Shown: in pieces, positions 2,729 through 25,311 of the stretch | Position numbering within the stretch: position 1 is the first letter of the stretch | Layout of the letters: the number at the start of each line of letters is the position of its first letter | NCBI GenBank assembly: GCA_964373565.1 | Contig: CAYJVF010000002.1 | Coordinates: 1 to 26,204 of the forward strand | From: an uncultured Candidatus Saccharibacteria bacterium | GTDB lineage: Bacteria > Patescibacteriota > Minisyncoccia > Minisyncoccales > Staskawiczbacteraceae | Length of the DNA: 26,204 nucleotides | Reading direction: 5' to 3' | Made by a program: the position numbers and the translations under genes | The notes under the pieces: model-generated | What the model was told of the DNA's origin: nothing | The model's database searches: none | What the model saw: the letters and a program-made list of their open reading frames with translations, nothing else

Positions 2729-4504
<1,776 letters not shown>

Positions 4505-4511
4505 GATTTAT

Positions 4512-8500: not shown

Positions 8501-8548
8501 TAACCCAGTCTTACAAAATAAAAGCTTTTATTTTGTAAGACTGGGTTA
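8501..8548. repeat. Perfect 48-bp palindrome downstream of the PaaX/Cas2-like gene
   Basis: TAACCCAGTCTTACAAAATAAAAG|CTTTTATTTTGTAAGACTGGGTTA. Confidence 0.95.
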
Positions 8549-8561
8549 GTTTTTTTAGTTT

Positions 8562-9101
8562 TTATAGTTTTTCTATTAAAAATACCTTTACATAATTATC
8601 TAAAGAGTACCATTGCAACAACTCTTCTGTTTTTTCAGACACATCATAGGGAGTCACCCATACGCTTTGTTGAAACATTTTATACCCCATATTCTGCAAA
8701 ACGCTTCTCAATAAATTGCGCGCTTTTTGATGTCTTTGAGGAATGTCAAAAATAATCATAATCCATTTGCCGTCCCTTCGTTTTGTTTTTTTTGAATCTT
8801 CAAACTTAAATCTTGCCCGCATTGCCTTATCTGCCCCCTTTTTAGTTAACATAACAGCCTGATTTCCCTGCAAATTTTTGACTCTGATAAAATTATTTCT
8901 TTTCAAATAGTGAATAAGATTGTTAAATGCCCGCTTATTTTTCATTTTTCTATAGCGTTTGAAAATTGGGTTCTCAAATCCAAAAGGCTCGCCATAACTC
9001 CTTTTACGCTGGACAAAGGGACGGACAATATCTCCTGCCTTTTCGAAAAAACTATACAAGTCCCAGAGCAACTGATCTGTAATGTTTGTTTTAATTGCCA
9101 T
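8562..9101 (-). CDS. PaaX-like protein: winged-helix plus Cas2-like/ferredoxin-fold domain
   Basis: LIHYLKRNNFI..VMLTKKG (wHTH wing), then DGKWIMIIFDIP..RNLLRSVL..GY..QQSVWVTPYD. Confidence 0.8.
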   Translation of the reverse strand: MAIKTNITDQLLWDLYSFFEKAGDIVRPFVQRKRSYGEPFGFENPIFKRYRKMKNKRAFNNLIHYLKRNNFIRVKNLQGNQAVMLTKKGADKAMRARFKFEDSKKTKRRDGKWIMIIFDIPQRHQKARNLLRSVLQNMGYKMFQQSVWVTPYDVSEKTEELLQWYSLDNYVKVFLIEKL

Positions 9102-9162
9102 TTTACATTAATTTTTTTAGTTTTTACTTTGCAGAATGTAAAATCCCACATACTTTCATTTT

Positions 9163-9212
9163 AATCCATAGTCTTAGAAATTAAAAGCTTTTACTTTCTA
9201 AGACTATGGATT
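9163..9212. repeat. 50-bp palindrome (one mismatched pair) upstream of the PaaX/Cas2-like gene
   Basis: AATCCATAGTCTTAGAAATTAAAAG|CTTTTACTTTCTAAGACTATGGATT. Its 36-bp core is 32/36 identical to 8507-8542. Confidence 0.95.
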
Positions 9213-9314
9213 TAATTACTTTTTTTGTTTTGTTTTATTGTATTTTGTTTTTTATTTTATTTTTTGCAAGAAAAAAGCCGTTGAAGTTATCTTTGGTTTT
9301 ACGGCAGCCGATCT

Positions 9315-11153: not shown

Positions 11154-11241
11154 GGCGACCCTAATATACGAATAACACACTAATCTACGAATACGAAATC
11201 GTATTAGTAGATTCGGATGAGATTAGTAGATTGGTGTCGCC
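11154..11241. repeat. Imperfect inverted-repeat element filling the M16 peptidase-AI-2E gap
   Basis: Terminal GGCGAC/GTCGCC. Arms are built of TACGAAT/CTAAT units with complementary ATTAGTAGATT units. Confidence 0.75.
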
Positions 11242-13831: not shown

Positions 13832-15154
13832 TTACTTTGATAATAGCACACTTATGTGACGTTTCAAATCAGAAACTTTTATTCTTTCTTGTTTAGTGGT
13901 ATCCCTATCCCGAACGGTTACCGTGTCACTTTCCAATGTTTCGAAGTCGACTGTAATTGACGCCGGTGTGCCGATTTCGTCTTGGCTGTAATATCTTTTC
14001 CCAATATTTCCGCGGTCGTCCCAAGCTGTCATAAAGTCTTTTTTCAAATCATCATAAATTTCGCGCGCTTTGGCAACCAGTTCCGGCTTATTTTTAAGTA
14101 AAGGGAAAACCGCCGCTTTGTATGGCGCGATTTTGGGATGTAATTTCAATACAATTCTTTCTTTTTCTTCAGTATAAGCATCGCAAAGCACGGCTAAAAC
14201 AGACCTGTCTACGCCAAAAGTGGGCTCTACCACATGCGGATAAAATGATTCTCCCGTTTCTTCGTCTCTGTATGGCGCTTCCTTATAATGATTCTTTAAA
14301 TCAAAATCGGTGCGGTAAGCTAAACCATATAATTCTTCTATACCAAAGGGAAATTTATAATCAAAATCTATTGTTCTTTTAGAATAATGGGCAAGCTCAT
14401 CATTTAAAATTTCTGTTTCGCGGATATGAGATTTTTCCAATCCAAGCACATTAGTCATCCAATCCCACATTTCATTCTTCCAATATTCAAACGATTTTTC
14501 CCAATCAGCCTCCTTGATAAAATATTCAATTTCCATTTGCTCAAACTCGCGAGTGCGGAAAATAAAGTTGCCGGGAGTAATTTCATTCCTGAACGCTTTT
14601 CCAATTTGGGCAATGCCAAACGGAATTTTTTTGCGCGAAGTTTCTAAAACATTTTTAAAATCCACAAACATTGCTTGGGCAGTTTCGGGCCTGAAATACA
14701 CAACCGAATCTTTATCTTCCACTGGACCCAAAAAAGTCCTCAACATTAAGTTAAATTGTTTTGCTTCTGTAAGTTGATATTTTGCATTACAATTTGGACA
14801 CTCTACGTCTGCAGTTTTTATACCTGTCTGGTTTTCTCCCCAAACTAAAGAACGAAATCGGTGGTGGCACTTTTTGCATTCTACCAGCGGGTCCGAAAAT
14901 TCTTTCAAGTGCCCCGATGCCTCCCACGCTTTTGGGTTCATGATCAAGGCCGCATCAATGCCCACCATATCATCTCGTTCATGGACAAATTTCTTCCACC
15001 AAAGTTGCTTGATGTTGTTTTTCAGCTCAACGCCAAGAGGACCATAGTCCCAGGAATTAGCCAACCCCCCATAAATTTCAGAGCCGGGGAATATAAAACC
15101 CCGCCTTTTGCAAAGGGAAACTACTTTTTCCATTAGGTCGGCTTCTTTTTTCAT
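13832..15154 (-). CDS. glyQS: Glycine--tRNA ligase (alpha2 type)
   Basis: SLCKRRGFIFPGSEIYGG, RPETAQ, FRNEITPGNFIFRTREFEQMEIE and IGKRYYSQDEIGTP. Confidence 0.97.
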   Translation of the reverse strand: MKKEADLMEKVVSLCKRRGFIFPGSEIYGGLANSWDYGPLGVELKNNIKQLWWKKFVHERDDMVGIDAALIMNPKAWEASGHLKEFSDPLVECKKCHHRFRSLVWGENQTGIKTADVECPNCNAKYQLTEAKQFNLMLRTFLGPVEDKDSVVYFRPETAQAMFVDFKNVLETSRKKIPFGIAQIGKAFRNEITPGNFIFRTREFEQMEIEYFIKEADWEKSFEYWKNEMWDWMTNVLGLEKSHIRETEILNDELAHYSKRTIDFDYKFPFGIEELYGLAYRTDFDLKNHYKEAPYRDEETGESFYPHVVEPTFGVDRSVLAVLCDAYTEEKERIVLKLHPKIAPYKAAVFPLLKNKPELVAKAREIYDDLKKDFMTAWDDRGNIGKRYYSQDEIGTPASITVDFETLESDTVTVRDRDTTKQERIKVSDLKRHISVLLSK

Positions 15155-22523: not shown

Positions 22524-23111
22524 TTAATTCAATTCTTTAATCTGTCCCTTGTGAATCCTCTCTTCTCTCTTAATTCTTTTTAAGTTTTCTTCCAAAGACA
22601 TGCTTTTTACAATGCTTTCTAAAATCCAAAGCGGACACTCATGGCTTACCACTAAAATATTTTTGCCTTTATGCTTTAATTCCATGTCATTTAAAAAATC
22701 TGAAACTCTTTTCCATACTTCCTGATAAGATTCTCCATTTTCCATTTTGTCCGTTATTCTTTCTGCCTCATTCCGGAATTTAATATCTAATTTTTCAATG
22801 GGCCCGCCATTCATTGCTCCAAAACTTATTTCTCTTAACCTTTTATCAAACTTTGGCTTCACTCCGATTGTTTTGCCCATAATTTCGGCTGTTTCTTTGG
22901 TTCTTTCTAAGTCTGACGCAAAAATAAAGTCAATGCTTTTTCCTTCTTTTGCAGTCATTTCCAGTAGTTTCTCGGCCGATTGATATATCATAAACCGGCC
23001 TTTTTCAGTTAAACGATTTTCAAAAGTTTCCGGCCAAGAAGAAGTGACCTGCCTTACGTTAGAAAGAGCCTCCCCATGTCTTAAAATATAGTATTTGTTA
23101 TTTAATTTCAT
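22524..23111 (-). CDS. Histidine phosphatase (phosphoglycerate mutase family)
   Basis: RHGE, SDLERTKETA, LREI and VSHE motifs. Confidence 0.9.
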   Translation of the reverse strand: MKLNNKYYILRHGEALSNVRQVTSSWPETFENRLTEKGRFMIYQSAEKLLEMTAKEGKSIDFIFASDLERTKETAEIMGKTIGVKPKFDKRLREISFGAMNGGPIEKLDIKFRNEAERITDKMENGESYQEVWKRVSDFLNDMELKHKGKNILVVSHECPLWILESIVKSMSLEENLKRIKREERIHKGQIKELN

Positions 23112-23115
23112 AAAT

Positions 23116-23596
23116 GAGTATCGATTCGAATATACTAATTTACTAATGATACAAATAGCAATACGAAAATTTATACGAATCTCTTCTTGTTATCTGTACC
23201 TACTCTGATTATTCTCACTGGTTTTATATAACGATTCCTAAAATTAACAATTAGTCCTAATTTCTTACCGCTCATTTGTAAATACCTTTGTAATTGGTAG
23301 AAATCCCCTCTTGCTATTAATCTTTTTGCCTTAGTTTCAAGAATTAATTTGTCTTCAACAATAAAATCAAGAATATTTTGACCATCGTCCATTCTTTGCT
23401 CTCTTTTATAGTTCACTTTCAATTCTTTTAGTTTTTTTCAATTAAATCACCGTCTTGTTTTTCTTTAGCAAATCTTCCCAGTTTATTGTGAGCTGCAAAA
23501 CAAATACCGTTAACCTTATAAGATAGTTCAGCATAAATTATTTTCGTATCTTTATTTGTATAATTAGTATTCATTTGTATATTAGCATCGATACTC
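23116..23596. mobile_element. Putative IVS-like cassette: GxxExxY gene enclosed by long imperfect inverted repeats
   Basis: Terminal GAGTATCGAT/ATCGATACTC plus three internal 9-bp complementary pairs. Fills the argS-phosphatase gap exactly. Mobility is inferred. Confidence 0.55.
23171..23574 (-). pseudogene. GxxExxY-family protein (PD-(D/E)xK-like), frameshifted
   Basis: MNTNYTNKDTKIIYAELSYKVNGICFAAHNKLGRFAKEKQDGDLIE, then a shift at A7 (23432-23438), then LKVNYKREQ..LDFIVEDKLILETKAK..YQLQRYL..GLIVNF. The span is 404 nt, 1 nt short of in-frame, and the motif Tyr is Asp. Confidence 0.85.
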
Positions 23597-23598
23597 TG

Positions 23599-25311
23599 CT
23601 ACATCTTAGTTGGAGCAGATATTCCAAGCAACCACAACCCATTTTTAATAATAATAGAAAATGCCTGCGTCAACGCAACCTTATGGGGCGAAAACTCATC
23701 ATTTTTGTCTACAATTTTATTATTTGCATAAAAATTATTAAATTCACGCGCCAGTTCGGTCAAATACAATGTAATGATATGTGGCTCATATTCTTCACCG
23801 GCTTTTTGGACAATTTCAGGAAAACGCACCATCATTCTTTCCAAATCACTTGTTTTTTTATTCGTAGATTTGGATGTCATTAGTAAATTAGTATCGCCCT
23901 TAATTTTTTCGTTTTTTGCTTTTCTTACTACCGACTGCGCTCTCGCATAACTATATTGCAAGTAGGGACCGGAGTCACCCTCAAAAGAAATTGACTTGTC
24001 AAAATCAAAAATAATATCGCTTCCAATTGACTGCTTTAAAATGGAATATTTAATTGCGCCAATGGCAATTTTTTCCATATCTTCATTTTCTAAATTTCTA
24101 TCACCTATTTTTCTCTTAATATTTTTCTTAACATTTTCTATAAAGGATTCTACCGGCACTATTGTGCCGGTTCTAGAAGACATTTTCCCGGAAGGCAACT
24201 TTAGCAATCCATGTCCAATGTGTTTAGTTTTTTTGGCTAAACTGGGATTAATTTGATTTAATGCGTCCAACATAACTTGAAAGTATGAATTTTGTTCGTT
24301 CGCAGTAACAATGATGGATGTATCGTACTTAAAATATTTATATTTCTTAATGGAAAGAGCCAAGTCTTTTGCTTCGTAAGTAGGCTGGCCCTCCGAGTTA
24401 ATGAAAACCCTTGTGTGCGATCCAAATTTTTCACCTTTAAAAATTATGGCGTTATTGTCTCCTCTTTCAAATATACCTCTTTTTTCACCCTCTAAAACTA
24501 TCTTTTTCCCATCATTGGCAACTTCTCCCTCAAAGAAATATTTATCAAATCTTGTATTTAATCTTTTATAAATTATTTCAAAATTTAATAAGCTTTCTTT
24601 TCTACCCAAGTCATATAACTTGTTGATTTCCCTATCCGATCTTTCATATATTTTTTTATTGATTTCTGCAATTTCTTGCCTTTGAACTTCATTTTCTTCA
24701 TAAGCTTTGTGCCCAAAGGCGTACGCTTCTTGTAAATTAACTCCTCTTTTTAACGCCCAAACCGCTTTCGCTACATGCATACCAATATCGCCCTGATAAT
24801 TTACCCTTTTTAATTGAGCCTCTGAAAATTCAAAAATTCTGGCAAGAGACTCTCCGATTATATTGGGCATCAAATGGCCAATATGAAACTTTTTGAAGGG
24901 GTTGGGGTCGGTATACTCAATAATTACCTTTTTATTTTTTAAAATACTATTTTTTCCAAACTTATCTTTTTCTTTCAAAACTTTTTTTAAATTATTGGCA
25001 AAAAATTCTTTTGATAAAAAAAAGTTGATAAACCCGGGTGGCACCGCCTCTACTTTTTCCATGCTAACATTCGTACGAATGTTAGCATGGATATTGATAT
25101 TGTTAACGATGTCAATAGCCACATCTAATGGGTTTTTATTCAAATCCTTAGCCAGTGCTAAAGCAACACTGGTAGCATAATCTCCGTGCGTTTTTTCTTT
25201 AGAAATTTCAACCAAAACCTTCGTACTCAAACTTTCGCGGTCGCGAAAGTTTGAGTACGATGTTTTCAATGCCTCTTCAATTATTTTTTTTAGTTCTTCT
25301 TGTATACTCAT
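23599..25311 (-). CDS. argS: Arginine--tRNA ligase
   Basis: HGDYAT, PGFINF, EYTDPNPFKKFHIGH, KMSSRTG and GDSGPYLQYSYAR. Confidence 0.98.
   Translation of the reverse strand: MSIQEELKKIIEEALKTSYSNFRDRESLSTKVLVEISKEKTHGDYATSVALALAKDLNKNPLDVAIDIVNNINIHANIRTNVSMEKVEAVPPGFINFFLSKEFFANNLKKVLKEKDKFGKNSILKNKKVIIEYTDPNPFKKFHIGHLMPNIIGESLARIFEFSEAQLKRVNYQGDIGMHVAKAVWALKRGVNLQEAYAFGHKAYEENEVQRQEIAEINKKIYERSDREINKLYDLGRKESLLNFEIIYKRLNTRFDKYFFEGEVANDGKKIVLEGEKRGIFERGDNNAIIFKGEKFGSHTRVFINSEGQPTYEAKDLALSIKKYKYFKYDTSIIVTANEQNSYFQVMLDALNQINPSLAKKTKHIGHGLLKLPSGKMSSRTGTIVPVESFIENVKKNIKRKIGDRNLENEDMEKIAIGAIKYSILKQSIGSDIIFDFDKSISFEGDSGPYLQYSYARAQSVVRKAKNEKIKGDTNLLMTSKSTNKKTSDLERMMVRFPEIVQKAGEEYEPHIITLYLTELAREFNNFYANNKIVDKNDEFSPHKVALTQAFSIIIKNGLWLLGISAPTKM
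23859..23898 (-). repeat. In-frame half-arm of the intergenic hairpin family inside argS
   Basis: 32/40 ungapped identity to 11154-11193. An exact 18-mer (23877-23894) matches 23132-23149 in reverse complement. Confidence 0.75.
25058..25091. repeat. Perfect 34-bp palindrome inside argS
   Basis: TCCATGCTAACATTCGT|ACGAATGTTAGCATGGA. Confidence 0.95.
25221..25260. repeat. Perfect 19-bp-arm hairpin inside argS
   Basis: TCGTACTCAAACTTTCGCG-GT-CGCGAAAGTTTGAGTACGA. Confidence 0.95.

Follow-up and report, generated by a model that had tools for sequence, protein, structure and literature searches.

In the window analysed here, the whole 26,204-nucleotide contig CAYJVF010000002.1 of an uncultured Candidatus Saccharibacteria bacterium, a small gene of the GxxExxY family lies between two long complementary arms and occupies the spacer between argS and a histidine phosphatase gene. 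We were able to confirm this hairpin-armed cassette, and found that inverted arms built of short repeated words are the rule for GxxExxY genes, not only throughout this genome but also across the genus and among relatives from two phyla. Gene-less hairpins with arms of the same families are dispersed over the genome, and single arms or entire cassettes also occur in frame inside protein-coding genes. [quoted passage not shown] The source assembly comprises 559 kb in 83 contigs and is 89% complete; the window is its contig C2.

The cassette and both of its host neighbours are encoded on the minus strand. The upstream gene is argS (23599..25311), transcribed in the same direction as the cassette, and the downstream gene is the phosphatase (22524..23111). 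In minus-strand order, the proximal arm (23520..23597), a word array that we call type A, starts 2 nt past the stop of argS and takes in the ATG and first codons of the GxxExxY gene (MNTNYTNKDTK). [quoted passage not shown] Between and partly within the arms runs the gene (PF13366/TIGR04256; 23171..23574), in two frames at 23438-23574 and 23171-23434. The arm pairings that had been read from the sequence alone are present at all four places: GAGTATCGAT at 23116 pairs with ATCGATACTC at 23587, ATACTAATT at 23132 with AATTAGTAT at 23562, ATACAAATA at 23149 with TATTTGTAT at 23553, and ATACGAAAA at 23161 with TTTTCGTAT at 23541. A repeat search returned the arm pairs 23141-23170/23540-23569 (87% complementary) and 23116-23139/23573-23596 (88% complementary), a gapped local alignment of the flanks of the gene, which placed the arms at 23116-23185 and 23520-23596, scored 64 against a shuffle maximum of 29, and the predicted fold of the 487-nt spacer (23112-23598) pairs both arms with a minimum free energy of -103.9 kcal/mol. 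These results agree in placing the GxxExxY gene between complementary arms in the argS-phosphatase gap. In the family at large, a cassette consists of a gene of about 130 codons between two inverted arms, and an arm strings together 3-5 short words; the argS-side cassette uses the 8-base word ATAC-N-AAT.

The gene enclosed by these arms is itself broken. At an A7 run (23433..23439, minus strand) the sense strand reads GAA AAA AAC TAA, that is, A_AAA_AAC followed by a stop codon, and the downstream part continues in the -1 frame; the gene is thereby split into frames of 56 and 88 residues, where an intact frame in this family has about 125-135. Matches to PF13366 (52.3 bits against a cut-off of 22) and TIGR04256 (52.8 against 35) were seen only once the frameshift was bridged by an X in the translation; PF13366 was the sole Pfam match, with neither a Y1/HUH transposase nor a GIY-YIG domain. 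The A7 run has the identical length in contigs from two independent metagenome runs, so that a mistake confined to this assembly does not account for the frameshift. The homologue nearest to the argS-side protein (58% identical) is encoded in a single frame of 136-142 residues, and in the alignment the argS-side copy is short by one residue only at the break and retains D...E-T-K. Its D (in LDFIV) and its E-T-K align with D76 and K88 of the D...E-x-K motif, which are among the invariant residues of the alignment, and E37 is also present; the conserved tyrosine of the E-x-x-Y motif, found in 20 of 22 other sequences, is an aspartate here. With its frameshift and its Tyr-to-Asp change, this copy reads as a recent pseudogene in the course of decay, although rescue of the frame by -1 slippage on A_AAA_AAC is possible. 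The role of autonomous element that the sequence-only reading had given to this cassette is thus not borne out, since the frameshifted gene would not be active unless the shift is bypassed.

Among known structures, those that come nearest to the structure predicted for the protein (pLDDT 84.6) belong to restriction endonucleases (BpuSI, Z 8.3; BglII, Z 8.0) and to Cas4, with lower structural scores for tRNA-splicing endonucleases. A Foldseek search with this structure gave weak, generic PD-(D/E)xK matches only, and searching the PDB by sequence brought up nothing meaningful, the one match having an E-value of 0.94. According to the structural model, then, the product of the GxxExxY gene would have a restriction-endonuclease-like fold.

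The architecture extends far beyond the window. The genome holds five PF13366 genes and three PF05635 genes (the 23S intervening-sequence protein, a four-helix bundle), and 8/8 lie between inverted arms in which words of 7-9 nt are repeated in tandem, with a separate word for each gene. As a background control, the inverted-repeat score of the flanks was computed over 409 genes of the genome, with a median of 18 and a 95th percentile of 27, which puts the arms of the argS-side cassette far above what chance would give; the few high scorers were these cassettes, genes between two hairpins, or members of another palindrome-flanked gene family. Within the genus, arms are found at 24 of the 25 GxxExxY loci, and among relatives from other genomes, cultivated Flavobacteriaceae included, at 38 of 46 loci, which were collected by a search with a single protein. 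The link of the arms to GxxExxY and four-helix-bundle genes, which had been put forward as a check on the element, is thus upheld both in the genome and across the genus. At about 15 of 15 distinct junctions the cassette gene is co-directional with the gene upstream; together with a proximal arm that starts at the upstream stop codon, this suggests that the cassette gene is expressed by read-through, with its translation presumably coupled to the upstream ribosome. We found no description of a hairpin-armed cassette element of this kind in a literature search, in which the term GxxExxY was rare.

Two gene-less hairpins lie in the window itself. One, of type B (4378..4506), fills the 139-nt groES-groEL spacer, and the other, of type B' (11154..11241), fills the spacer between an M16 peptidase gene and an AI-2E transporter gene, its outer base overlapping the M16 stop codon. 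Both gaps had been described as filled in this way from the sequence alone, and the identities given there proved exact: 24/30 between 4381-4410 and 11155-11184, and 32/40 between 11154-11193 and the arm at 23859-23898 within argS. An arm of the groES-groEL hairpin is matched best by the L047 cassette of a congener (37/41). The further matches of the window hairpins and the argS arm to B/B' cassettes are 37/39 (L037), 35/40 (C46) and 39/43 (L036), C46, whose gene is at L049:1498-1893 on the minus strand, being an intact B' cassette of the same genome that the type B' hairpins match at 35 of 40 positions. The proposed pairing of an autonomous element with non-autonomous ones is therefore right in part: such pairs exist, but the window hairpins and the argS arm match the B/B' cassettes and not the type A cassette beside argS, whose derivatives are located on other contigs.

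Word and hairpin scans of those other contigs yielded at least 10 type A hairpins (AGTATCGAT..AATATACTAATTTACTAATGATACAAAT...) and at least 9 arms or hairpins of type B/B' (GCGATCC... or GGCGACAC...AATCTACGAAT...), in line with the proposal of a family of gene-bearing cassettes and gene-less hairpins that have common arms and are dispersed genome-wide. Compared with the proximal arm of the cassette beside argS, ten type A hairpins show 85-95% identity (38/42 to 51/59), and six of the ten keep the ATG and the first 7-8 codons, M(N/S)TNYTN. These hairpins have the appearance of internal-deletion derivatives of the type A cassette. The four-helix-bundle cassettes have gene-less look-alikes as well (for example C5:5003 and C22:5437). 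A covariance model of type A retrieved about 20 elements in the genome and tens more in many congeners, with near-identical copies in G003, G010, G014, G017 and G004, and the number of hairpins per genome increases with the number of GxxExxY genes (Spearman 0.58, with no kinship correction). Metagenome contigs from four runs confirm the high copy number of the arms. Gene-less hairpins occur in either orientation, and occupy spacers of a few nucleotides within operons or, in frame, protein loops that tolerate them.

Two local arrangements of type A hairpins were also seen. Two complete copies (C6:14209-14299 and 14642-14740; L058) bracket rpsS, the gene for ribosomal protein S19, at 4-8 nt from co-directional neighbours, presumably in a ribosomal-protein operon. 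Several type A hairpins have CGCGAAGC(N)ATG beside one of their ends, immediately ahead of the start codon downstream (C28:37-141, C57:2380-2481, C6:14204-14304); GCGAAGC is a very stable DNA mini-hairpin.

What is conserved in these arms is the sequence of their words. When ten type A copies are aligned, none of the 30 paired columns varies to any real extent; the differences fall on the middle base of the word and on the spacers, where the arms often mismatch. The covariation between arms that the sequence-only reading had looked to is consequently missing within the genome: 0 of 30 pairs have changes on both sides, as paired columns hardly vary. At the junction J1, the arms are 77-94% identical between species, compared with 22-54% at four-fold sites, and the cassette protein is 75-83% identical, compared with 62-73% for the neighbouring gene; the left and right arms each keep their own differences across species. 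The invariant cores, the free middle base and the conservation of the J1 arms together point to constraint on the word sequence, not on pairing alone. By these comparisons the word cores are conserved far beyond neutral expectation, with the middle base free to change. Words of the form AC(G/T/A)AAT flank the protein clade of the argS-side copy from Patescibacteria to Flavobacteriaceae, and other GxxExxY clades have the words CGCTGAT, ACGCAGAC or CGCGGAA. This distribution indicates that the type of word follows the protein clade across phyla, and that clade and word are tied functionally.

Comparison of orthologous junctions, at the argS 3' end and between groES and groEL, uncovered full, gene-less, footprint and absent alleles; full, empty and absent alleles were those that the sequence-only reading had proposed to look for. 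At the argS 3' junction, six congeners have no element at all, the phosphatase gene abutting or overlapping the argS stop codon. G008 and G006 (L008, L018) carry only a footprint, GGTATCGATAC(TC), which is the closed clamp of a type A element, the remnant that would be left if everything between the two palindromic ATCGAT clamps disappeared. Three further congeners have gene-less hairpins with other words (CACGAAT, ACGCGGAT, CGCGGAA), and the remaining ones have unrelated palindromes. The groES-groEL spacer holds a word hairpin in 12 of 20 loci of the genus, with different words in each, and measures only 8-37 nt, with no hairpin, in five; in G015 the arms of the groES-groEL hairpin are those of that genome's own GxxExxY cassette. 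Certain junctions hold related cassettes in five species, and other junctions hold unrelated cassette types depending on the species. Related cassettes at one junction in five species point to the vertical persistence of some cassettes. Taken together, the alleles are those of junctions that evidently gain, lose and exchange hairpins between species.

Elements of this family are also found inside genes. In argS, a single type B' word-array arm (23859..23898, minus strand) lies in frame at the junction of the catalytic and DALR domains and encodes GDTNLLMTSKSTN. This segment is extra relative to about 20 orthologues, and it occurs at the same codon position in four species, with the peptides GDTNLLMTSKSTN, SDTNLRMTSEFTN, SDPNLRIHPNDPN and SNTNLRMHPNATN; at the DNA level the inserts of all four carriers are type B/B' word arrays, and the carriers do not form a clade (approximately unbiased (AU) test, p 0.0001). 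The in-frame arm described earlier is thus an insertion and not conserved ArgS sequence, being extra relative to most orthologues and carried by a non-monophyletic set of species. In the carriers the argS arm has no complementary partner nearby, except in the window, where an 18-nt stretch of it is perfectly complementary to 23132-23149. We do not take this 18/18 complementarity between the argS arm and the distal arm as a sign that they interact, because the shared words of the family can explain it; the arm in G018 differs by few substitutions. A single type B arm is in frame in uvrC (L072:115-1560; C7:14314-15759, plus strand), where it encodes SDPNIRMTSESTN, a peptide almost identical to the argS insert of G018.

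The largest insert is in recG (L068:606-3269, contig C14, minus strand), where an entire GxxExxY cassette, arms of ACGCAGAC words together with the gene, is in frame over 153 codons. Of 24 species of the genus, 5 have it, placed after helicase motif II and before motif III, and in the other 19 these motifs are separated by a fixed 28 residues. The carriers are scattered on the RecG tree and are not a clade (AU p 3e-50), and identity at four-fold sites is about 0.49 in the insert compared with about 0.33 in the host gene. The scattered carriers and the more similar four-fold sites of the insert argue for spread between lineages rather than for many precise losses. As a separate observation, all five recG carriers have small perfect hairpins of 8-10 bp, with compensatory differences, in the recG coding sequence to either side of the inserted cassette. 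Such hairpins outside the arms were tried as a general feature of the cassettes and dismissed as such: stems of at least 8 bp are present in 12% of flanks and 0.8% of the background, an enrichment that falls short of a general property.

How might such a family work? In the reading as a selfish cassette family, the nuclease would bind, as a multimer, the word arrays of its own arms and of the gene-less copies, and would cut at or near the outer clamp of the element. Cutting could then mobilise the elements or let them home, as RAYTs do with REP sequences, Ssn with NTS repeats, and transposases with their inverted repeats and MITEs; the action of the nuclease on the arms is our inference from the architecture. 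In the transcript, the arms would pair into a long stem that begins at the upstream stop codon, and this stem may couple the cassette gene and the host gene that follows it, in their translation, to the upstream ribosomes; it may also be a site for RNase III, as in the intervening sequences of 23S rRNA. A bolder version, in which GxxExxY proteins are sequence-specific endonucleases that read arrays of 7-8-nt words, with another word for every clade, and serve as the transposase or homing enzyme of an unrecognised class of bacterial mobile elements, whose gene-less hairpins and in-frame copies have settled in the essential operons and genes of ultra-small genomes, is tentative, and we consider it rather doubtful.

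Several observations weigh against a selfish nuclease-plus-repeat family. To our knowledge, no activity has been reported for any GxxExxY protein, and a structural Z of about 8 falls within the range that the comparison tool labels as common. The chief weakness is that the four-helix-bundle cassettes have the same design and their own gene-less derivatives and encode no nuclease, so the arms may be the vehicle and the genes only cargo. G007 and G019 carry about 16 type-A-like hairpins with no PF13366 match. No target-site duplication was seen, no direct repeat being common to the sequences that border the cassette and ten type A copies. No movement within a strain was detected either, the apparent skips in metagenome contigs from the four runs being other loci or other organisms. 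Finally, the J1 cassettes seem to have been passed on vertically for a long time, a history as compatible with a retained function as with selfishness.

Other explanations were weighed as well. The cassette could be an RNA element comparable to the 23S intervening sequences, in which RNase III cuts the double-stranded stem and so takes the loop, whether or not it holds a gene, out of polycistronic transcripts, and in which the protein has no part in spread. Such an element would account for the three sister cassettes with PF05635 genes and for the co-directionality of cassette genes with the gene upstream, which suggests read-through transcription, and RNase III is encoded in 22 of 25 congeners; it was not found in the 89%-complete assembly studied here, an absence that, given its presence in most congeners, is probably due to incompleteness. 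We nevertheless hold this explanation to be unlikely. The cassette lies outside rRNA, and the window has no Rfam match. G-U pairing, used as a test for a sense RNA, gives no signal, as the strand that folds better is the transcribed one in only 5 of 10 type A hairpins. The paired positions are invariant rather than compensatory, with mismatches recurring regularly at the middle base of the word. In recG, argS and uvrC, cutting the in-frame cassettes or arms would destroy the message, and excision from RNA offers no route by which DNA copies could spread.

Hairpins kept by the host to tune operon expression, through processing, stability or translational coupling, with the genes as passengers in existing loops, would explain their position at conserved operon junctions in many species (groES-groEL, both sides of rpsS) and the long conservation of the J1 arms and genes. 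Yet the hairpin-free alleles, in six species at the argS junction and in five at groES-groEL, are hard to reconcile with such a role, as is a word type that differs at a given junction in nearly every species while matching other copies of the same genome. Tuning of expression would also be at odds with the occurrence of either orientation and with in-frame copies in coding sequence, where no such role applies, and an association of genes with arms at 24 of 25 loci is too tight for passengers; we judge this explanation improbable. Slightly less probable still is an account without any transposition, in which old hairpins at fixed junctions resemble one another within a genome through gene conversion, as in concerted evolution. 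It draws on the same resemblance of orthologous junctions to other copies in their own genome, and on type A hairpins that are nearly unchanged across species. At J1, however, homogenisation is not evident: the identity of a left arm to its own right arm is 0.75, against 0.73 for left arms compared across species, and only one of six left arms is nearest to its own right arm. Furthermore, absent alleles with 0-15-nt spacers call for outright gain or loss, and the insert of the scattered recG carriers looks younger than its host gene. The selfish cassette family thus remains the reading that we prefer.

Other repeats are also present in this genome. A 179-residue gene with a PaaX_M/Cas2-like domain (8562-9101, minus strand) is bracketed by its own palindrome, TAACCCAGTCTTACAAAATAAAAG..., at 8501-8548 and 9160-9215, and four similar genes on contigs C36, C26, C8 and C7 each have their own flanking palindrome; these genes and palindromes are a second gene-plus-own-repeat system in the genome. 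In the N-terminal domain of argS (25215-25266) an in-frame palindrome (…AACTTTCGCG|CGCGAAAGTT…) encodes NFRDRE. Similar peptides, NFRDRE and DLRDRA, occur in ArgS of two other species and the segment is absent in most; the same palindrome also flanks the PaaX_M-like gene on contig C36. Further abundant palindromic families of 150-340 nt (TTGAATTACGAAATGC... and TGAGATGGTTGCAAAAGTCC...; e.g. C45:32-375, C3:15473-15656, C4:19183-19363) are present as well, and several contigs contain runs of N.

GxxExxY is a large family with no assigned function, and it would gain one if the arms are its substrate. The selfish cassette reading, if true, would add a new nuclease-plus-repeat mobile system beside REP/RAYT and Ssn/NTS, and the rRNA intervening sequences could then be the rRNA-resident members of a broader class of cassettes. 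Genomes of 0.6-0.9 Mb, usually considered poor in mobile DNA, would carry tens of elements, sited in operons for ribosomal proteins, chaperonins and tRNA synthetases as well as within recG, uvrC and argS. Clade-specific recognition of word arrays could also be of interest for the design of sequence-specific nucleases, and the related cassettes in cultivated Flavobacteriaceae make bench tests feasible; cultivated strains with a homologue include Mesoflavibacter zeaxanthinifaciens DSM 18436 (L175), Bizionia algoritergicola APA-1 (L176), Gelidibacter sediminis DSM 28135 (L180) and Olleya aquimaris DSM 24464 (L184).

Among known systems, the ORF-bearing intervening sequences of 23S rRNA, described in helix 45 of Coxiella burnetii and in Leptospira, have a gene in the loop of a stem formed by terminal inverted repeats (PMC4990558). 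The cassettes share with them a small, often decaying gene in the loop of a long stem, tandem heptamers in variable number beside the start codon and, in three sister cassettes, the same S23p/four-helix-bundle family (PF05635). They differ in lying between or inside protein-coding genes, in carrying a PD-(D/E)xK GxxExxY gene and in having many gene-less copies, and excision by RNase III would harm those that are in frame. With REP sequences, their paired REPIN forms and RAYTs (PMC3733652) the cassettes have in common a small nuclease-type gene flanked by inverted copies of its own repeat, gene-less hairpins in intergenic spacers, and a repeat sequence particular to each protein clade. A RAYT, however, is a Y1/HUH transposase, whereas the cassette protein has a predicted restriction-endonuclease fold, and a REP sequence is a single palindrome of 20-40 nt with a GTAG or CGTC tag, whereas cassette arms consist of 3-5 words over about 40-70 nt.

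The Ssn/NTS-SRM system offers a further parallel, with a small nuclease gene between copies of a hairpin repeat that is abundant in the genome and that, for Ssn, is the substrate of the enzyme; 42% of Ssn homologues are flanked on both sides by a hairpin-forming repeat (PMC11893778). Here the nuclease is of the GIY-YIG type rather than PD-(D/E)xK, its cleavage of single-stranded DNA has been demonstrated, while the cassette protein is a putative nuclease, and each NTS repeat forms a hairpin of its own instead of a large stem around the gene. Finally, IS elements with their MITEs and the Rickettsia palindromic elements (PMC10969869, PMC2229807) resemble the cassettes in having inverted repeats that enclose a gene, internally deleted copies and folding into RNA hairpins. 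In contrast to IS and MITEs, the cassettes show no target-site duplication and encode no recognised transposase family, and their arms are made of repeated words. Like the Rickettsia palindromic elements, they are inserted both between genes and in frame, where they are translated (argS, uvrC and, as a whole cassette, recG), but in-frame copies of the cassettes include single arms, and not only whole palindromes.

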